A stretch of DNA of 38,929 nucleotides from a virus (Duplodnaviria; Heunggongvirae; Uroviricota; Caudoviricetes): positions 64,001 through 102,929 of IMG/VR virus record IMGVR_UViG_3300045836_000108. One strand, given 5' to 3'. Positions 13,305-21,659 of the stretch are shown here, piece after piece. Made by a program: the position numbers and the translations under genes. The number at the start of each line of letters is the position of its first letter. Positions within the stretch are counted from its first letter, which is position 1. A model generated the notes under the pieces. The model was not told the origin of the DNA and searched no databases. It was given only the letters and a program-made list of their open reading frames with translations.

Positions 13305-13374
13305 ACAAGTGGTGCCCCTCAGGCGCCCCGACGTGGCCAAAGGCCACCGCCAAGCCAACCGGAGGAGAAAAGAA

Positions 13375-14778
13375 ATGGCTGGAAAAAAAGACCTCGAAGA
13401 GTTCGTCCGCGACATGAGACGCACCCCCGGCTGGACGGTCCCAGACGCGCCCAACGGCGCCGGACACTGGACCTTCACCAACGACGAGACCGGGGAATCC
13501 GTCACCATGTCGTCCACGCCATCCAGCGTCCGGACCCTGGCCAATACCAAGGCGGAGCTGCGAAGGAAGGGATGGGACGAGGAGGCGTTCAAGCGAGCCA
13601 AGGAAGCGGACCGGGCAGAACGTCTGGCCGCCGACAAGCTCAAGGGGGAGAAGGCAATGGCTGACGCCATAGCCCGCGCCGCCAAGGCGACAGCCGAGCT
13701 GGCCGCTCCCGTCGCAAGTCAGTTCATCCCCGCGCAGGTACCCATCATCATCACGCCTACCGCACCGGAGGTGCCCATGGCCTCTGCCCGCAACATCCGC
13801 GCCCTCTTCGAGCCCCACCGGGACCGCGACCCCGAGCAGTACGACCTGTACTGGGTCACGCCGGAACTGGCCGACGCAGCGCTGGAGAAGGGGCCGTGTG
13901 CACAGCGCCGCGTCTCCGACACGAACGTGGCCCGGATCACCAGGGCCATCAACACCGGCCGTTTCTACAAGAACCCTGCCGACCACATCTTGTTCGATGT
14001 CCACGGCTGCGCCTCCAACGGTCAGCACCGGCTGTACTCGATCCTGGACGCCGATCCCGACGCGCTCAAGGAGCACTACCCCAACGGGGTGCCGCTGTAC
14101 GTCAAGTTCGGATTCAACCCGGAGCACATGAGCGTCGTGGACACCGGCAAGTCCCGGGACGCCAACGACGCGCTGACCGTCGCGGGTGAGGCCCAGTTCG
14201 GCAAGCAGGGCGCGGCTGTGCTGCGGCTGATCATGAACTTCGACAAGGGTCTGCCGTGGACCCATTGGAACAAGGAAGTCTGGATCAACGACGACTTCAC
14301 CGAGGCCGCCAAGGGCGGCTTGAAGGAAGTCGCAGACTACCTGAACTTCGCCCAGACCCTGTACCGCAAGGCCGGTCTGAACAAGACCGTGGGCGCTGCT
14401 GCGGCGTTCCTCATCGACCGGGACAACCCGGGCGGGGGGGCGCCGGACCGCCCGGAGCGCACCAACCAGGAATTCTGGGACGGAGTGTGCTTCGAGGTGG
14501 CGCTGGCGCCTAACGACCCGCGTGCTGCGCTGTACAAGTACCTGAAGGGTCTGAAGGACGACAAGACCCGTACCGCCAAGACGCCGGTGCTGCTGGGCCA
14601 CGTCCTCCGGCAGTACGCCAACTGGCATCTCGGCAACACCCTGTCGATGTCCCGGCAGGACGACGACTGGCCGATCCCGGCCGTGTGGCAGCCGGGTATG
14701 CGGTTCATCGCGGGCAAGCTGAAGCACCCGGAGCGGGCGGTGAAGCCGAAGACCGCGCCGAAGACCACCAAGAAGTAG
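13375..14778 (+). CDS. HicA-like N-terminal domain fused to a ParB/DGQHR-like domain (467 aa)
   Basis: GWTV..NGAGHWTF..VTMSSTPSSVRTLANTKAELRRKGW; VTPELA..QRRVS..V..I...G.F....ILFD..G..SNGQHRL; CCGGAGGAGAAAAGAA-ATG. Confidence 0.65.
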   Translation: MAGKKDLEEFVRDMRRTPGWTVPDAPNGAGHWTFTNDETGESVTMSSTPSSVRTLANTKAELRRKGWDEEAFKRAKEADRAERLAADKLKGEKAMADAIARAAKATAELAAPVASQFIPAQVPIIITPTAPEVPMASARNIRALFEPHRDRDPEQYDLYWVTPELADAALEKGPCAQRRVSDTNVARITRAINTGRFYKNPADHILFDVHGCASNGQHRLYSILDADPDALKEHYPNGVPLYVKFGFNPEHMSVVDTGKSRDANDALTVAGEAQFGKQGAAVLRLIMNFDKGLPWTHWNKEVWINDDFTEAAKGGLKEVADYLNFAQTLYRKAGLNKTVGAAAAFLIDRDNPGGGAPDRPERTNQEFWDGVCFEVALAPNDPRAALYKYLKGLKDDKTRTAKTPVLLGHVLRQYANWHLGNTLSMSRQDDDWPIPAVWQPGMRFIAGKLKHPERAVKPKTAPKTTKK

Positions 14779-15090: not shown

Positions 15091-15124
15091 GCAGCGCCGT
15101 TTCCCTACGCGGGAACGGCGCTGC
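15091..15124. terminator. hairpin at the convergence of plus and minus genes
   Basis: gcagcgccgtttccc/gggaacggcgctgc, 14 bp with one bulge. Confidence 0.55.
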
Positions 15125-16013
15125 TGCGCTTCTCCCGCACGTTCACGGCCCGGTCCAGCTCCTCGTCAGCGGTGCCGCACTCGGTGACCTTGGTTCGGAA
15201 GTAGCTGACGATGCTGATGCGTTCTGCGCCGCAGTCCTTGCAGTACTTGTCTAGGGTGTTCCCGCACTTGCAGACGATGGCGGTGTTGCCGTGCCACTCG
15301 TGGGCGTTCATGAGGATCAGGTCGCCGTCCTGAAGGTCCACGGCCACCCGGTACTCCGGGAAAGTCAGACGTCCCCCGGTGAACTCGCCGCGCCGAATAC
15401 AGGCGATTGTAGAGAACCCTTTGTCCAGGTCTCCCTTGTCGGTGTGGACTCCGGTGGGGTACGTGTTGTTGACGGTGACGGTGGAGAACGGCGTGCCCGG
15501 CACCACCCACTCCGGCTTGGATGCCTTGGCCTCGGCAAGTTGGTTGGCGTAGCGGTCTGGGACGTACTCCTCCAGGTACTTGGCGACCTCCATCAGGAAC
15601 GGCTGGAGGCTCTGCCACTGGGGCAGGTTGTCCCCAGTCCAGGCGGTGAGGCGGCAGTACCGGTAGATGCCACCTGGGTCGATGGCGCCGATGATGGCGG
15701 ACGGCACGTCTTTGGCGTAGGTGCGGTTTTGGCCGTTGCGCTTGACGCGGACGCTTCCGGCGGCCATGCCCCTGTTCTTGGACACGGCGTTCCAGAGGCT
15801 GTGGAAGATCGCATACACCTCGTCGGTGATGGCGTCTTTCATCGCGGCGGGCAGGTACACGCACAGCGGTGAGCCGTCTGGTTTGCGGACGTAGCTGGGG
15901 CCGGTCAGCAGGATGTTGTAGTCGGCGTCCGTGAGGATCTTCGCGACCTTCTCGTCCATCTCCTGCTTGGAGATCTTGGACCGCAGGCGGACGTCAACAA
16001 GCGGGATGGTCAC
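15105..16013 (-). CDS. TET/JBP-family 2OG-Fe(II) 5-methylpyrimidine dioxygenase (302 aa)
   Basis: TPFSTVTVNN..T.VHTDKGD (HxD), GG.L.FPEY..AV....GDLILMNAHEWHGNT (distal His), RISIVSYFR (2OG-binding Arg). Confidence 0.85.
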   Translation of the reverse strand: MTIPLVDVRLRSKISKQEMDEKVAKILTDADYNILLTGPSYVRKPDGSPLCVYLPAAMKDAITDEVYAIFHSLWNAVSKNRGMAAGSVRVKRNGQNRTYAKDVPSAIIGAIDPGGIYRYCRLTAWTGDNLPQWQSLQPFLMEVAKYLEEYVPDRYANQLAEAKASKPEWVVPGTPFSTVTVNNTYPTGVHTDKGDLDKGFSTIACIRRGEFTGGRLTFPEYRVAVDLQDGDLILMNAHEWHGNTAIVCKCGNTLDKYCKDCGAERISIVSYFRTKVTECGTADEELDRAVNVREKRSSAVPA

Positions 16014-16558
16014 CGCAGAACCTCCAATGCCGGAACAGCTTCTATGAGGGCTTCAACAAGTTCTTGGGGCGTGCGCATGCCGTCCAGGTCCCAGCCTCCG
16101 ATGGCGGCGCGGAGGTTCGCTGCCCGCGTGGAGGCGCCCTTGATCCACTTCTCGTCCTGGTTGCTGCCGCGCTTCCGGCGGCGTGCGTCCAACTCCTGCC
16201 GGGTGGCGTCGAGGTAGAACGTATGCACGGCGTATCCGGCGCCTCTAGCGGCCTCTAGGAAGCCGCGCGTGGCCAGCCGTGCCCCTTCCCCAAGAATGAG
16301 TCCGTACGGCTGCGTACGGAGCCAGGAGATGGCTTGCGGCTGGATGCTCATCGACATGGCGTCGGTGCCGGAGAAGGCTTGCCGACGTCGGCCAAGCTCC
16401 ACGCCGACGATCTCCGGAACGTAGTGGCCTTCACGGAGCAGAAGGTCATGGGGGACTTTGGATTCGCTTGTAAGGCGTCCGCAGTTCTTGGTCAGCTCCG
16501 CCATCAGCGTGGATTTCCCGACTCCGGGAGGACCGTACAGGTAGACCAGCGCGTTCAC
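16010..16558 (-). CDS. P-loop nucleotide/DNA kinase of base-modification clusters (182 aa)
   Basis: Walker A GPPGVGKST; FSGTDAMSMSIQP; LGEGARL; lid RRRKRGSNQ; GTG 16558 overlaps the upstream stop. Confidence 0.75.
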   Translation of the reverse strand: MNALVYLYGPPGVGKSTLMAELTKNCGRLTSESKVPHDLLLREGHYVPEIVGVELGRRRQAFSGTDAMSMSIQPQAISWLRTQPYGLILGEGARLATRGFLEAARGAGYAVHTFYLDATRQELDARRRKRGSNQDEKWIKGASTRAANLRAAIGGWDLDGMRTPQELVEALIEAVPALEVLR

Positions 16559-17361
16559 CACGAGTTCACCATCTCCTCTGCCTCGGCCGGTGCCAGGGCG
16601 TAGCCGGTCCGGTGGTAGCCGGTCAGGACATAGTGGCCACGGCTGTGCTGGAACGCCCGGGGCTCGGTTTGGATCCTCTGTCCGTACACCGGCCTCCACG
16701 GACCGGAGGAGTCGCCAGCAGTGATCCCCAGATCGTTGGCGATGTCCAGCATCTTCTTGGCCTGTTCCCGGGCGCCCTCCACCGTCGTGGACGACGAGGA
16801 ACCAAGCCGGGCGCGTCCTCCGACGACACCGGCGGTGAGGGTCTTGTACGGGGCGATGTAGTGGACCCGCAGGCTCGGTTGGGCAAGCCTACGTGGGCTG
16901 GCTACCCACGTGACGCCGTGGGTGATCTTGCCGTCGCCGTGGCTGGACCCAACAGCTACAACGACCTTGTCGCCTTTGAGGACACGGCCATCGGCAAGGG
17001 AAACCTCATTGCGGGAACACCTGGACAGGATTCCCTTCTCGACGCCGGAGGTGAACAGCGGCGCAGCCGGGTCAAGCATCCGCCAGTCCTTGTCGCGTTT
17101 GACGCCTTGCCGCTGGTAGCTGGAGACGTCTGCACCTTCCAGCATCTCCACGCCCCACGCCTTGTACATCTCCATGCTGCGGTCCCACAGGCGGGCGTCG
17201 CGGGGAGTCTTGGTGTGGTAGCCGCGCCGAAGAACGGCGGTGGCGGCCAGCGACGACGGCGCGTTGCCATCAGAGATGTGGACGGTTTCAAAGCCTCGCC
17301 GGTGACAAGCCCGAACCACGGAGCAGCCCGCAATACCTGCCCCGACAACAATCACCCTCAT
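16555..17361 (-). CDS. FAD-dependent oxidoreductase, DAO/glycine-oxidase-like (268 aa)
   Basis: Rossmann VIVVGAGIAG at the N-terminus; C-terminal TGYHRTGYALAP. Confidence 0.8.
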   Translation of the reverse strand: MRVIVVGAGIAGCSVVRACHRRGFETVHISDGNAPSSLAATAVLRRGYHTKTPRDARLWDRSMEMYKAWGVEMLEGADVSSYQRQGVKRDKDWRMLDPAAPLFTSGVEKGILSRCSRNEVSLADGRVLKGDKVVVAVGSSHGDGKITHGVTWVASPRRLAQPSLRVHYIAPYKTLTAGVVGGRARLGSSSSTTVEGAREQAKKMLDIANDLGITAGDSSGPWRPVYGQRIQTEPRAFQHSRGHYVLTGYHRTGYALAPAEAEEMVNSW

Positions 17362-18227
17362 GTGCGCTCCAAGATCTTGCCGGTGTCGCGGTATGCGCGT
17401 TTGCGGACAGGGTCCGGGCCGGTCCAGCCGTAAATCTCACCCAGGTACGGGTTGGGAAGGGTGTGGAACCGGGCTTCCAGAGCTGACTGGGTCCACGCCG
17501 ACTGCACGTCCAACAGCTGCCGCAGCATCTGGTCGATGTCGTGGCCGACGTAGTACCGGCCGGTAGCCAGGGCATGGAAGTCGCACAAGGTCGTCTCCAC
17601 CTCCTCCACCGGGGCGTGGAGTCCTTCCTGCTCCAAGCGGCGGCAGATGATCTCCGAGACCTTGTCCAGCTCCCGCGCAGCCTCCTTGCTGTTTCCCTTA
17701 GGCAAGTCCCGCAGCAGCAGATCCATGCCTTGACGGGGGCCGGACGAGTGGGCGTGGCCCATGTCGGTGGCCTCCACCCGAACGCTACAAACCTTCCACA
17801 GAAGCTCAGACGTTTTGAATGAGGCCCACCGGCCGTTGCCCCAGATATCCAACAGCGCGTCGTTGAGTTTCCCCCAGGCGTCCCGGGGACCCGTCGAGCC
17901 TTGGATAGCGTTCCTGATCCACCGTTCCCATCCTCCAGGCAGAGCCTCCACGGACCGGAGTCCGTCTAAGTGCCTGGCAAGCTTGCGGGCATCCCGGTGT
18001 CCACGGCGTTCCGTCGCGCACGGCAGAGGGCCCTTCTCGCCCAGGAATGCTGCCAGCCCGGAGCCCAGGTGGTAGTACGCGACGTACCGCATCACCAGCC
18101 GGATGCGGTCCTCGGCGGACAGGCCGTGGTACACGGCCAACTGACGCAGCACCGGGTACACCGGGTCAACGTCTTGTGTCTCCAACGCCAGGCGGTGGAA
18201 CCGGGCGTAGTCGTCCCAGATAGCCAT
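17358..18227 (-). CDS. amino acid:DNA transferase (aGPT-Pplase2-like, HhH-glycosylase fold) (289 aa)
   Basis: DVDPVY, TERRGHR, GNGRWASFK, EVETTLCDF....GRYYVGHDIDQM. Confidence 0.75.
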   Translation of the reverse strand: MAIWDDYARFHRLALETQDVDPVYPVLRQLAVYHGLSAEDRIRLVMRYVAYYHLGSGLAAFLGEKGPLPCATERRGHRDARKLARHLDGLRSVEALPGGWERWIRNAIQGSTGPRDAWGKLNDALLDIWGNGRWASFKTSELLWKVCSVRVEATDMGHAHSSGPRQGMDLLLRDLPKGNSKEAARELDKVSEIICRRLEQEGLHAPVEEVETTLCDFHALATGRYYVGHDIDQMLRQLLDVQSAWTQSALEARFHTLPNPYLGEIYGWTGPDPVRKRAYRDTGKILERT

Positions 18228-18955
18228 CAGACGGGGCTGTGGATGGCGTTGTAGTGCTTGCAGTGGTCGCAGTCGTCGCCGTGTTCTGCGCGGGCTGCCA
18301 CGGTCAGCTTCAGGCCGCGTGCGGCCCGCAGCAGGATCTCCCCGTTGGTGAGGTCGCTGTTTGCGTCCAGGGAGGACCGCAGACCGGCCAGGTGCCGGTG
18401 GAGTTCGTCGTGGTCGTCCTGGGGGAGGATGATCACGGTCTCGCGGATGCCGCGTGCCGCCAGGGATTCCCCGGAGCCCAGTTCGGAGCGGGCCTGCGCC
18501 TCCTCCGGCGTCTCCGCGTACTGCGCCTGCGTGGCGACGTACGGCGTCTCAGCTACCTGGTCCAGGGCTGCCAGCAGGTCGTCCAGGTCGTCGGCGTCCC
18601 AACCGGTACCGACGAAGTCCCCGTCCAGCTGCTCCAGCAGCGCAGCCAGGGACGCGTCATCGTAGCCTGCGCGTTCGCCGATGCGGTTGGCGGCCAGGTT
18701 GATCCAGAGGGCTTCATCGTCGGAGCACTCGATGACCTTGCACTCGACAGTGTCCCAGTCCTCCAGGCGGGCTGCCTCGGCGGTGCCGTGGCCGGAGAGG
18801 ATGGTGTAGACGCCTGCGTGTTCCCGTACGACGATCGGCTGAAACTGTCCGCGCCGGAGGCTGCGGCGCAGCTCGTCCAGGTCGTGTTCCTTGGCGTTGC
18901 CGGGGAATTCGTGGAGCTTAGCCAGCGGGAGGTTGGCGAACTCGATGTGCTTCAT
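18227..18955 (-). CDS. ParB/Srx N-terminal domain protein (242 aa)
   Basis: L..L..FPGNAKEHD...L..SL..GQFQPIVV....ILSGHGT.EAA, NLAANRIGE.AGYD. Confidence 0.85.
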   Translation of the reverse strand: MKHIEFANLPLAKLHEFPGNAKEHDLDELRRSLRRGQFQPIVVREHAGVYTILSGHGTAEAARLEDWDTVECKVIECSDDEALWINLAANRIGERAGYDDASLAALLEQLDGDFVGTGWDADDLDDLLAALDQVAETPYVATQAQYAETPEEAQARSELGSGESLAARGIRETVIILPQDDHDELHRHLAGLRSSLDANSDLTNGEILLRAARGLKLTVAARAEHGDDCDHCKHYNAIHSPV

Positions 18956-20322
18956 ACGTCGTCCTGTCCTTCAAGGGTGTTCAGTGCGGAGTCAACATCG
19001 ACTTCACCGCAGAGCTTGGCGGCAGCGTTGGGGCTGCCTTTGATGAACACCAGGACTTCCTGGTGGTTTCGGATCAGAAGCCGCGTGCGGGGGAACGTGT
19101 AGCCAGCCCGGATTGCGGCGGTGCCGATCGAGTTGATCAGAACTGCCTCGGAGTGTGTTCTCAAGCCCGCGTCGGCTGCGGCCTTGCAGGTAACGGCCCG
19201 GAGGTCGCGCAGCCCTCCGCGCTTGTCCCGGACGGAGCCTACGACGATGACTGCGAACCTGTCGTTTTTCAAGGTCCGGAACGACTCGCGCAGGATGTGC
19301 ATGTACGCTTCATCGAACGCGTCCGTATCCATGTTGGATAGGTCTTTGTCGTTGTCGGAGTACTTCTCCAGGTCGTAGTACGGCGGGCAGGTGAACACCA
19401 TGTCAAACTGTTCGTCGCGGAGGATCGAGGCCTCGTATCGGGAGTCTCCCTGCATCCACACCGGGACCTGTGTTCCCCACCGTTTCCGGTAGGCCCAGGC
19501 GGTGTCGAAGTTCAAGTCCACCTGCTCCTGCGACAGGTCCACGCCGCTGTATTTGAGGCCTAGTTGGGTGGCTACTAGGCCGCGCGGAGGGCCACCGGCG
19601 AAGGGGTCGAAAACGTGGCCGCCTTTGGGGCAGAACCAGATGTAGCACAGCTCCGCCAATACAGGATCGAACACGGACGTGCCGGTGGTGAACCCTTTCT
19701 TCACCAGGTAGTCGGCTGCCTTCACGGGAATCTTGTAGGACGTGGCGCCTTCCCGTGCCTCGTCCCGGGCTTCCAGTCCGCCGACGCCCCGGTCAAGCCA
19801 CTGGCGTTTGCGGCCTAGCCACCAGCCGGTGCGTGCGTCGATGACGGAGAACGGCGGGGCCAGGAAGCGCTCTGAGAGGCTGCCTGCCGCCACGGGAGGC
19901 TGCTCCGTAGCTAGTTCCTGGTCGGCTTGTTCCAGAGCCTCCAGCGTGGTCTGTATGTCGTATCCGAGCAGGTCTGGGTCAACGCCTTCATCAAGCAGAC
20001 CGGCGAGGAGTTCGTTGAGTTGTTCGTCGTCGTAGTCGCCAAGGTCGGAGGTGCGGTTGTCCGCGACCATGATGGACTTGGCCGTTGTGTCGTCCACGTC
20101 CAAGACGACGGCGGAGACCTCTGCGCGCCCCAGCTGTTTCATCGCTTTCCAGGTGTGGTTGCCCGCGATGATGTAGCCGGTGCTGGCTTGGACGACGATG
20201 GGCTTGTATTGGCCCAGGGCTTCGATGGATTTGGCGATGGCTTCGGTGTTGCCGCGCCTGGGGTTGTCGGGATGCGGCTGAACAGCGTCGATGGCTAGCG
20301 TCCGAACCTGCTCAGGCTGCAT
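18952..20322 (-). CDS. ParB/Srx domain fused to an amino-DNA methyltransferase (N4-C/N6-A type) (456 aa)
   Basis: PHPDNPRRG..GQYKPIVV..IIAGNHTW, DNRTSD; SAM motif FDPFAGG; catalytic FTCPPY; GGAGG RBS before ATG 20322. Confidence 0.85.
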   Translation of the reverse strand: MQPEQVRTLAIDAVQPHPDNPRRGNTEAIAKSIEALGQYKPIVVQASTGYIIAGNHTWKAMKQLGRAEVSAVVLDVDDTTAKSIMVADNRTSDLGDYDDEQLNELLAGLLDEGVDPDLLGYDIQTTLEALEQADQELATEQPPVAAGSLSERFLAPPFSVIDARTGWWLGRKRQWLDRGVGGLEARDEAREGATSYKIPVKAADYLVKKGFTTGTSVFDPVLAELCYIWFCPKGGHVFDPFAGGPPRGLVATQLGLKYSGVDLSQEQVDLNFDTAWAYRKRWGTQVPVWMQGDSRYEASILRDEQFDMVFTCPPYYDLEKYSDNDKDLSNMDTDAFDEAYMHILRESFRTLKNDRFAVIVVGSVRDKRGGLRDLRAVTCKAAADAGLRTHSEAVLINSIGTAAIRAGYTFPRTRLLIRNHQEVLVFIKGSPNAAAKLCGEVDVDSALNTLEGQDDV

Positions 20323-20445
20323 GCGTCCTCCGGTACTTCCCTGCGTTTGATCACGAGTGTAGAGCACCTGGTGGCGACACGGTGTCGTGTGGCGGTGTGG
20401 CCGTTTCTGAGTATGTAAAAGATCTTGGATAAAGTTCGCGAACCC

Positions 20446-20477
20446 GCTTTACATCACTTAGCGATCAGGAGTAACGT
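20446..20477 (+). promoter_or_regulatory. conserved phage promoter
   Basis: GCTTTACATCACTTAGCGATCAGGAGTAACGT = TTTACA-18-TAACGT. Confidence 0.75.
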
Positions 20478-20516
20478 TGCCCCCGTAAGCCAGACCGAGA
20501 CCCAGAGGAGCAGGCG

Positions 20517-21659
20517 ATGAACATCGAGTACAAGTACACCGGGACCAAGCAGATCCGCATCGTGGACGGCGACGTCCTGGAGGTCACCGACCGCGAGGCC
20601 TTCATCAGCTCCAGTGGCACCGCCCACTACGCCGACTGCTCCGTGGTCACCCGGATGCTGTCCGGCGGCGGTATGAACCGCATGGCGGCGCGCAAGCCCG
20701 TCTCCATCGTCAAGGCCATGGAGGGCATCAAGAACGGCACCTACGCCGACTGCGCCGCCTGCGCCAAGAACGAGGCCAGCCGCCAGGCTGAGTACGCCGA
20801 GAACGAGCAGCTGATAGCCCCCAAGCCCGTCGTCGTGGACGTCGAGCCGACGGCTCCGGTCCAGAAGACCCGCAAGACCCGCAAGGCCCGCAAGTCCGTG
20901 AACAACACCAAGGTCGAGGAGAAGACCATGAACAACACCGCTACCGCCACCCCGCTGCCCGAGGGCGTCAAGGCCAGCCACACGATGCAACCGGTGTGGG
21001 ACGCCATCGTGGAGCTGAAGTCCGCCACCACCGCGCAGGTCATCGAGAAGTCGGGCGTCAGCCGGTCCTCCGTGCTGCGGGCCCTGAAGGCTCTGAACGA
21101 GGCCGGGGCCGTCACGGTCACCGTCGGTGACAAGCGCACCCAGTCCCCGGACGTGTGGACGCTGGCCGGGGCCGAGCCGACCGCGCCGCAGGCGTCGGCT
21201 CAGGACGAGCTGGAGCTGGAGCTGGAGGAGCCGGTGGCGCAGGTGCCGACTCCCCGCGAGGAGCCCAAGCCCGCTGTCGCCGTTCAGCCAAAGCCGCAGC
21301 CCGCGAAGAAGGCTGCGGCCCCCAAGCCCGCGATGACCGTGGCGCAGCACCGGCAGGCGAACGCCGACGAGGCCCAGAAGCGCAGCGCCGCCGCGAAGAA
21401 GACCGCTCCGGCCCCGGCGAAGAAGGCTCAGCCGCTGCCTCCGACCGCTATCGGCGGCAAGCAGATGACGGTTATCCTGCCGTGGATGATGGAGCACCCG
21501 GGCGAGTTCTTCACGGTGAAGCAGGTGGAGGAGGCTCTGGGTCTGCCGGACTACCCGCGCGGGGCGTGCTTCCGGCTGGTGGCGGCGAACGTCGGCGTGG
21601 AGCAGGAGAAGCGGACCGACAACAAGCTGCGGTTCGGGTACACGGGTAAGGCCAAGTAG
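20517..21659 (+). CDS. hypothetical protein with internal winged HTH and Lys/Ala/Pro-rich linkers (380 aa)
   Basis: ATTAQVIEKSGVSRSSVLRALKALNEAGAV; internal RBS plus ATG at 20928. Confidence 0.8.
   Translation: MNIEYKYTGTKQIRIVDGDVLEVTDREAFISSSGTAHYADCSVVTRMLSGGGMNRMAARKPVSIVKAMEGIKNGTYADCAACAKNEASRQAEYAENEQLIAPKPVVVDVEPTAPVQKTRKTRKARKSVNNTKVEEKTMNNTATATPLPEGVKASHTMQPVWDAIVELKSATTAQVIEKSGVSRSSVLRALKALNEAGAVTVTVGDKRTQSPDVWTLAGAEPTAPQASAQDELELELEEPVAQVPTPREEPKPAVAVQPKPQPAKKAAAPKPAMTVAQHRQANADEAQKRSAAAKKTAPAPAKKAQPLPPTAIGGKQMTVILPWMMEHPGEFFTVKQVEEALGLPDYPRGACFRLVAANVGVEQEKRTDNKLRFGYTGKAK

Follow-up and report, generated by a model that had tools for sequence, protein, structure and literature searches.

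How could a tailed phage (Caudoviricetes) hypermodify the thymines of its DNA when its genome encodes no recognisable enzyme for hydroxymethylating dUMP? This question is raised by the IMG/VR record IMGVR_UViG_3300045836_000108, a 102,929-bp virus record with terminal repeats and a completeness rated at 100%, whose last 38.9 kb (positions 64,001 to 102,929; 38,929 nucleotides, G+C 64%) are hereafter called the window and supply the numbering used below unless stated otherwise. At 15105-20322 the window carries a cassette of six minus-strand genes with overlapping stop and start codons, which, judged from its sequence, probably encodes a post-replicative thymine hypermodification pathway leading, entirely on DNA, from thymine via 5-hydroxymethyluracil (5hmU), 5-phosphomethyl-U and N-alpha-glycyl-T to 5-aminomethyl-2'-deoxyuridine (5-aminomethyl-dU). 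The concept of such a dioxygenase-primed pathway is already published (Lee 2021, PMC8989533; O'Toole 2026, PMC13229309), and the cassette is a well-supported new example of it. The genes, in transcription order and preceded by the intergenic region in front of them, are as follows:

20323..20516, no strand: divergent intergenic region between the cassette and a plus-strand winged helix-turn-helix gene (position only)
20322..18952, minus strand: ParB_N plus N6/N4 methyltransferase, 456 aa, ATG preceded by GGAGGA
18955..18227, minus strand: standalone ParB-like protein, 242 aa
18227..17358, minus strand: amino acid:DNA transferase (AADT; formerly aGPT-Pplase2), 289 aa
17361..16555, minus strand: short FAD-dependent oxidase of the NGTO (PaMx11 gp47) type, 268 aa, GAGIAG at the N-terminus
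16558..16010, minus strand: 5-hydroxymethyl-dU DNA kinase (5-HMUDK), 182 aa, GTG start, Walker A at residues 9-16
16013..15105, minus strand: TET/JBP Fe(II)/2-oxoglutarate dioxygenase, 302 aa

The junctions read ATGA, TGATG, ATGA, GTGA and GTGA, which amounts to overlaps of 4, 1, 4, 4 and 4 nt, so that the six coupled genes and the 1-4 nt overlaps listed in an original prediction made from this DNA were reproduced directly from the sequence. Its six gene identities were likewise upheld by Pfam, all assignments exceeding the curated cut-offs. The start of the kinase was placed at the GTG at 16558 because the Walker A motif then lies N-terminally; the 229-aa open reading frame of the mechanical list begins too early.

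According to the model that we favour, the phage DNA would first be replicated with ordinary dTTP, whereupon the TET/JBP dioxygenase, together with the adjacent ParB-like protein, would oxidise a subset of thymines in DNA to 5hmU. The P-loop kinase would phosphorylate the new hydroxyl to give 5-phosphomethyl-dU, and the AADT would then put a free amino acid, most likely glycine, in place of this phosphate, attached through its amino group, yielding N-alpha-glycinylthymidine. Finally, the NGTO-like flavoenzyme would oxidise the C-alpha-N bond of the glycine and free glyoxylate, leaving 5-aminomethyl-dU. The last three steps (kinase, AADT, oxidase) are read from homology with enzymes characterised biochemically and structurally (PMC8989533, PMC11472151), and the same holds for the first (TET and ParB), whose homologues form a class that has been tested both in E. 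coli and in vitro (PMC13229309). No acetyltransferase is encoded, and therefore the free amine is probably the final base, i.e. an uncapped 5-aminomethyl-dU, which phage PaMx11 acetylates instead. The pathway outlined in the original prediction thus stands, with a matching enzyme family for every step, but needs three corrections: the idea had already been published, the standalone ParB, which was given no role, is a probable activator, and the ParB-methyltransferase is better regarded as an accessory.

The flavoenzyme was the weakest link of the earlier argument, because Pfam shows only an N-terminal FAD motif (DAO, 2e-11, N-terminal part only) and single-sequence searches are uninformative: phmmer against PDB sequences returned nothing significant, tblastn of the FAD protein against phages matched only Mycobacterium phages Phelemich and Reprobate, and tblastn of PaMx11 gp47 against the studied genome gave no match. 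The connection between the FAD protein and gp47 becomes visible only by profile, PHROG and fold. The FAD proteins form a coherent family of 260-290 aa (79 homologues, alignment A1), whose profile aligns with gp47 over its full length (hhalign probability 97.4%, E 1.5e-11, 257 columns), and both proteins fall into phrog_16743 (the FAD protein at 1.6e-23 over its full length, gp47 at 1e-170). Furthermore, the AF2 model of the FAD protein (pLDDT 95.5) has as its three best PDB matches the PaMx11 gp47/NGTO structures 8Z79 and 8Z2O (E 7e-16, TM 0.78/0.74, 21% identity), which rank top among at least 500 matches and are followed by secondary-amine oxidases (opine dehydrogenase, iminodiacetate oxidase, sarcosine oxidase and glycine oxidase). 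With its 268 aa the protein fits the short (about 285 aa) two-domain GR2-type FAD fold. The residues that surround the substrate in NGTO, with the roles assigned to them in PMC11472151, are three kept, one conservatively changed and one changed: the wedge Tyr180 corresponds to Y172 and the cage Lys268 to R251, both invariant in the family, Arg242, the proposed holder of the glycine carboxylate, to R229, invariant in all 54 family members, and the cage Trp51 to a Tyr (Tyr in 41 and Trp in 12 of 54), the changed position being Gln182, to which we return below. The FAD protein is therefore a well-supported remote homologue of gp47/NGTO on the evidence of profiles and predicted structure, and the flavoenzyme step put forward in the original prediction gains support from the best structural match, the profile alignment and the shared PHROG.

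The AADT scores 61.2 bits against a cut-off of 26.2 (ADDT PF18724, 1.6e-16) and belongs to phrog_6364 (4e-33), which is the PHROG of PaMx11 gp46. Its family profile (alignment A4) finds in the PDB the AADT 25qc at 4.4e-18 and 8Z2M, the PaMx11 glycinyltransferase, at 4.6e-08. D21, Y52, W134, K138, E211, T212, C215 and D230 are invariant among the 24 homologues and E73 is kept in 22 of them; C215, E211, T212, W134, K138 and D21 align with C247, E243, T244, W146, K150 and D24 of PUGT, where Cys247 is the proposed nucleophile, Glu243 and Thr244 are metal ligands, and Trp146 and Lys150 bind glycine (PMC11472151). The equivalent of Trp146 is a Trp here as in the glycine enzyme, a Tyr in the putrescine enzyme and a Leu in the serine enzyme. 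What chiefly speaks for glycine as the donor is that the carboxylate-binding Arg is kept in the partner oxidase. The kinase matches Ploopntkinase3 (PF18751, 5.7e-38; 130.8 bits against a cut-off of 27) and has an intact Walker A motif, GPPGVGKS. It belongs to phrog_800 (1.7e-21), the PHROG of PaMx11 gp49, although BLASTP between the two proteins is insignificant; the label of this PHROG, 'terminase small subunit', is wrong.

At the head of the pathway, the TET protein (Tet_JBP PF12851, 8.7e-22; 77.5 bits against a cut-off of 34.9) has a profile that matches the structures of TET2 and Naegleria Tet. H190-x-D192, H241, the 2-oxoglutarate-binding R265 and C279 are invariant in 21 homologues from related contigs (alignment A2), and C279 is followed by a 23-residue charged extension with a conserved acidic/basic pattern. 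A C-terminus prolonged in this way after the final conserved Cys, which is C280 in 5mYOX176, was described by O'Toole et al. (2026) as exclusive to ParB-dependent thymine dioxygenases, whose thymine dioxygenase activity and dependence on ParB were proved by tests in E. coli and in vitro, and which are consistently linked to P-loop kinases and AADTs with no neighbouring C5-methyltransferase (PMC13229309). On these sequence features the TET is presumed to be a ParB-dependent thymine dioxygenase. Its closest cultured homologue, gp18 of Pelagibacter phage HTVC112P (32%), is encoded directly after a ParB gene. Between the second iron-binding His and the 2-oxoglutarate-binding Arg, at about residues 249-262 (15228-15269), the TET also has a CxC...CxxC insert, possibly a zinc knuckle, which recurs in a subclade comprising the TETs of L007, L008-L012 and L014 and is absent from the other sequences of alignment A2; the TETs of L008, L009, L011, L012 and L014 end in a low-complexity tail of 100-130 Pro, Ala and basic residues.

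The standalone ParB is probably the activator of this dioxygenase, judging from its domain composition and position. Pfam finds ParB_N (3.9e-07, residues 22-89) and no other domain, and of the solved Spo0J, Noc and ParB structures the family profile covers the CTP-binding N-domain only. In the AF2 model a confident N-domain (1-110) is followed by short helices, a disordered segment (135-164, pLDDT <50) and a helical C-terminal domain, with no helix-turn-helix. At residues about 52-58, where canonical ParBs have their arginine-rich CTP-binding motif, the protein reads SGHGT, as does that of L007, where the other 19 cassette ParBs have a nearly invariant GNHT. A prediction of the TET and ParB complex scored 0.39 against 0.00 for the best control; at least 91% of contacts are common to its runs, and the pLDDT of the partner is at least 73. 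The mark used here lets through 58 of 80 solved complexes and 2 of 110 mismatched pairs, but scores up to 0.60 comprise only 7 of the 80 solved complexes together with both passing mismatches, and we give this weak support little weight.

The association of these genes is conserved well beyond the studied genome. A scan of IMG/VR with the FAD family, in which neighbours were identified by tblastn with the window proteins, returned 37 loci, and in all but one of these contigs (36/37) at least one of the AADT, kinase and TET genes lies beside the FAD gene; a ParB-like gene is present in about 29 of the 37, and the TET gene is found either after the kinase gene, as here, or between ParB and AADT. 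The closest relative, the 101,916-bp contig L007, has five of the genes, with its TET 95%, ParB 89%, AADT 79% and FAD protein 69% identical. In larger relatives (100-135 kb) two extra genes of no known family, encoding 289 aa and 97 aa, lie between AADT and FAD (L008:8695-10004), and these phages may make a different final base; the 289-aa product was considered as a further FAD-family member and rejected as unrelated.

The gene set is also present, mislabelled, in cultured phages. In Phelemich and Reprobate gp1-gp5 are ParB, a divergent TET, AADT, the FAD protein and the kinase, the Phelemich AADT, FAD protein and kinase being 40%, 42% and 45% identical to the window proteins. Phelemich gp2 (L002:810-1673), annotated as 'queuine tRNA-ribosyltransferase', matches phrog_6059, which bears that label, and gives a weak Tet_JBP match (8.3e-05) below the cut-off, while gp5 (L002:3330-3869), annotated as 'terminase small subunit', is the 5-hydroxymethyl-dU DNA kinase (PF18751, 2.8e-73). 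The wrong labels appear to be propagated by phrog_800 and phrog_6059, PaMx11 gp49 being likewise annotated as a small terminase. Microbacterium phage Kozie has TET, AADT, DAO and kinase genes in this order and no ParB, the cassette of Kozie and MO526 being gp1-gp4. In Gordonia phage Wooper and Rhodococcus phage Tonitrus a fifth gene of about 290 aa replaces the flavoenzyme (L004:3054-3926, L005:3761-4642); the genome announcement of Tonitrus annotates such a hypermodification system (PMC11955845). This fifth gene has no Pfam or PHROG family, apart from a faint N-terminal Rossmann-like match in Wooper gp5, and the Wooper protein was rejected as a member of the FAD family, to which it is unrelated; we read it as an uncharacterised tailoring enzyme.

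Several points weigh against the route from thymine to 5-aminomethyl-dU proposed above. Gln182 of NGTO, which reads the thymine edge, is a Thr here, and the DNA contacts Lys202, Arg210 and Tyr244 are not conserved in the FAD family. The AADT profile scores slightly higher against the putrescine enzyme of PhiW-14 (49 bits) than against the glycine enzyme of PaMx11 (35.7), with 5 for the ViI serine enzyme, and by sequence the AADT clade is far from all characterised enzymes, so that the appended group is only presumably glycine. Some clade C1 dioxygenases showed little or no activity in E. coli (PMC13229309), and the predicted complex of TET and ParB is a weak pass. Furthermore, the genome encodes a dCTP deaminase (genome positions 43409-43987, minus strand, outside the window; DCD 5.5e-47), an enzyme that also accompanies nucleotide-level 5hmU pathways, and our literature searches found no base analysis of this phage or of a cultured carrier of the gene set, be it Phelemich, Reprobate or Kozie.

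Some of these points would equally suit an explanation in which the TET, kinase and AADT front end is the same, but the AADT adds a polyamine (putrescine or diaminopropane, for example) or an amino acid other than glycine, and the flavoenzyme oxidises the adduct differently, so that a base other than 5-aminomethyl-dU results. Amine-using AADTs are indeed known (PMC8989533; PMC13458397), and the distance of this AADT from characterised enzymes, its slightly higher score against the putrescine transferase, the loss of the four NGTO residues and the extra genes between AADT and FAD in related cassettes all point in that direction. Against this stand the carboxylate Arg kept throughout the FAD family, the fold, size and PHROG that the FAD protein has in common with NGTO, and the Trp at the glycine-carboxylate position of the AADT; moreover, oxidative cleavage on the amino-acid side would yield 5-aminomethyl-dU from any alpha-amino acid. 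We therefore consider a different end product unlikely, yet deserving of attention, and glycine-derived 5-aminomethyl-dU the better supported outcome.

A further question is what the modified base would be for. Its role is likely the protection of phage DNA from host nucleases. Alternatively, the chemistry might be as proposed, but the marks sparse and sequence-specific, serving regulation, packaging or self-recognition rather than broad protection from restriction. Phage thymine dioxygenases modify only 1-35% of thymines in E. coli, with preferences for YTY and NTR, and O'Toole et al. themselves consider a role of an epigenetic kind (PMC13229309); in cultured relatives the cassette directly precedes the terminase gene at the genome end. 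In the studied genome, by contrast, no recognisable terminase adjoins the cassette, which is here transcribed together with a gene for a DNA methyltransferase, a typical means of anti-restriction, and hypermodifications derived from 5hmU block type II restriction (Flodman 2019, as cited in PMC11955845). A role confined to sparse marks thus appears rather improbable, though not so much as to be set aside, and protection from host nucleases is the function that we prefer.

Where, then, does 5hmU come from? The original prediction had noted that neither a dUMP hydroxymethylase nor a C5-methyltransferase lies in the window, and this holds for the complete genome. Searched in six frames over its whole 102,929 bp, the genome has no match at E <= 1 to PF00303 (thymidylate synthase and dUMP hydroxymethylase), PF02511 (ThyX) or PF00145 (C5-methyltransferase), and none at E <= 0.1 to the GNAT acetyltransferase family PF00583. 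To our knowledge, all known dUMP hydroxymethylases belong to the thymidylate-synthase family. Likewise, PaMx11 gp48 (acetyltransferase) and gp51 (thymidylate-synthase homologue) have no tblastn match in the genome. No DNA polymerase of family A or family B was found in the complete genome, other polymerase families not being included in the search; because it has neither such a polymerase nor a dUMP hydroxymethylase, the phage DNA is presumably made with ordinary dTTP. Among 19 relatives' records, six of which are at least 90% complete, none has PF00303.

These absences bear on the idea that 5hmU arises at the nucleotide level, with the dCTP deaminase feeding dUMP to an unrecognised hydroxymethylase and the TET being auxiliary or acting elsewhere. 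The deaminase is real, and phages that modify thymine through the nucleotide pool typically carry one (PMC13697223). However, neither the studied genome nor any of the 19 relatives offers a thymidylate-synthase-family candidate, ThyX and a gp51 counterpart are equally missing from the genome, no phage polymerase of family A or B is there to favour a modified nucleotide, and the TET gene is translationally coupled to that of the kinase. We therefore reject this supply route as very improbable; with a thymidylate synthase homologue being absent, the deaminase may instead raise the supply of dUMP and dTTP via host enzymes. Least credible of all, and rejected too, is a cassette acting on cytosine, its TET oxidising 5-methylcytosine made by a host C5-methyltransferase: phage TETs of clades A and B do act on 5-methylcytosine (Burke 2021, as cited in PMC13229309) and the tested thymine dioxygenases also oxidise it in vitro (PMC13229309), but the genome has no C5-methyltransferase, only 2-3 of the 19 related records have a gene like one, the only substrates known for the kinase, AADT and NGTO families derive from 5hmU (PMC8989533, PMC11472151), and the ParB-associated TETs tested so far produce 5hmU (PMC13229309). 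Oxidation of thymine in finished DNA is thus the source of 5hmU that we retain.

The first gene of the cassette seems to stand apart from this chemistry. The ParB-methyltransferase (ParB_N 7.9e-11, N6_N4_Mtase 1.7e-08) belongs to phrog_498, 'DNA methyltransferase' (1.4e-100), and its methyltransferase domain has full-length homologues, 34-43% identical, in (pro)phages of Listeria, Enterococcus ('DNA adenine methyltransferase'), Clostridium, Haloarcula and Mycobacterium, none of which is among the matches of the AADT or FAD-protein searches. As the family is widespread in unrelated phages and the cassette of the closest relative, L007, is without the gene, we regard it as an accessory DNA methylase recruited into the operon, probably an independent DNA amino-methylase translationally coupled to the cassette, and on the same grounds a role as a step of the pathway was judged unlikely. 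It is very doubtful that it methylates the exocyclic amine of 5-aminomethyl-dU to give 5-methylaminomethyl-dU; if it did, the FAD oxidase and the methyltransferase would together reproduce on DNA the two activities of MnmC (cmnm5U -> nm5U -> mnm5U), at the same amine that PaMx11 acetylates.

By GC3 the cassette is an inverted block with plus-strand genes on either side. Its promoter presumably lies in 20323-20516; no sigma-70-like site came up when the cassette and its surroundings, this region included, were scanned with the consensus, and terminator-like hits at the cassette were not above the shuffled expectation. The region lacks the repeated promoter module described for other parts of this genome. 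Short matches between 20323-20516 and other intergenic regions of the genome occur only on the side that faces the plus-strand gene. The latter (20517-21659, plus strand), divergent from the cassette, encodes a 380-aa winged-helix protein with a TrmB/MarR-like helix-turn-helix and a weak match to a phage replication-initiator PHROG, and may be a regulator or an initiator. At the other end, a plus-strand gene at 13309-14778 converges on the 3' end of the cassette; its 489-aa product matches phrog_5931 and phrog_2089 and no Pfam family, and L007 has a 477-aa gene at the equivalent position. Genes for a RecT-like protein and a PD-(D/E)XK nuclease lie at the left end of the genome (L047:1857-4326).

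As far as we could find, our analysis goes beyond the published text in two respects: the tailoring enzyme of this widespread sub-type is a homologue of NGTO, no flavoenzyme being mentioned in the text or the domain list of O'Toole et al., and the gene set can be recognised behind wrong labels in the cultured phages Phelemich, Reprobate, Kozie and MO526. If our reading is true, the positively charged base 5-aminomethyluracil would be made by this phage and its relatives wholly on finished DNA with no dedicated nucleotide metabolism and apparently by way of the host polymerase, which would take the experimentally demonstrated ParB-dependent thymine dioxygenases as far as an end product that is complete and chemically defined, and would mean that the tailoring enzymes of PaMx11 are interchangeable between nucleotide-fed and dioxygenase-fed pathways. 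Owing to the cultured carriers, the product can be checked by mass spectrometry without synthesis. The cassette enzymes are attractive, too, as tools with which to label thymine in DNA site-selectively.

Several known systems come close to the cassette. The front end is reminiscent of clade C1 of the 5mYOX dioxygenases (5mYOX176/ParB176; O'Toole et al., PNAS 2026, PMC13229309; preprint 10.1101/2025.08.14.668559): in both, a TET/JBP protein with a C-terminal extension is accompanied by an adjacent ParB that has a nucleotide-binding domain at its N-terminus, then a disordered linker and a C-terminal domain, and no DNA-binding domain, as well as by a linked PF18751 kinase and PF18724 AADT, and there is no C5-methyltransferase. 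The partners described there are GATases, kinases and AADTs, whereas here an NGTO-like FAD oxidase is added; moreover, the studied TET subclade differs from the published description by its CxC...CxxC insert, its likeness to the class being one of described features. The clusters that Lee et al. (2021) reported from metaviromes (sequences 22-25 in Figure 2 of PMC8989533) are similar in that the hydroxyl acceptor would be formed on DNA beside a 5-HMUDK and an aGPT-Pplase2; in that figure TET_JBP replaces the dUMP hydroxymethylase, and the clusters are described as gene maps only.

The cultured actinophages (Phelemich/Reprobate, Kozie/MO526, Wooper and Tonitrus) differ in having no ParB-methyltransferase and in keeping their cassettes at the genome end before the terminase, and in Phelemich the TET, encoded between ParB and AADT, is of another, divergent subclade, with an identity of about 22-28% and a Pfam match that stays under the cut-off. 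A further parallel, taken from the literature, is MnmC, to whose FAD domain, MnmC1, gp47 is homologous and which removes a carboxymethyl group from a glycine-derived uridine adduct (Lee et al., PMC8989533), but which acts on tRNA and carries a fused methyltransferase domain that methylates the amine.

The back end, in turn, resembles PaMx11, whose gp46-gp49 lead to 5-acetylaminomethyl-dU (Lee et al. 2021/2022, PMC8989533; structures 8Z2M-8Z79, PMC11472151) and whose gp46, gp47 and gp49 pathway was reconstituted by Lee et al. (PMC8989533). The same three PHROGs recur in the same order, AADT-FAD-kinase here corresponding to gp46-gp47-(gp48)-gp49, and the catalytic residues of the AADT as well as the Tyr, Arg and basic cage residues of the flavoenzyme are kept in spite of an identity of only about 21-23%. 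The two differ in what surrounds these enzymes: PaMx11 obtains 5hmU from its dUMP hydroxymethylase gp51 via the nucleotide pool, has a DNA polymerase of its own and acetylates the amine with gp48, whereas the studied genome, in which no counterpart of gp51, gp48 or a family A/B polymerase was found, has a TET and a ParB instead.

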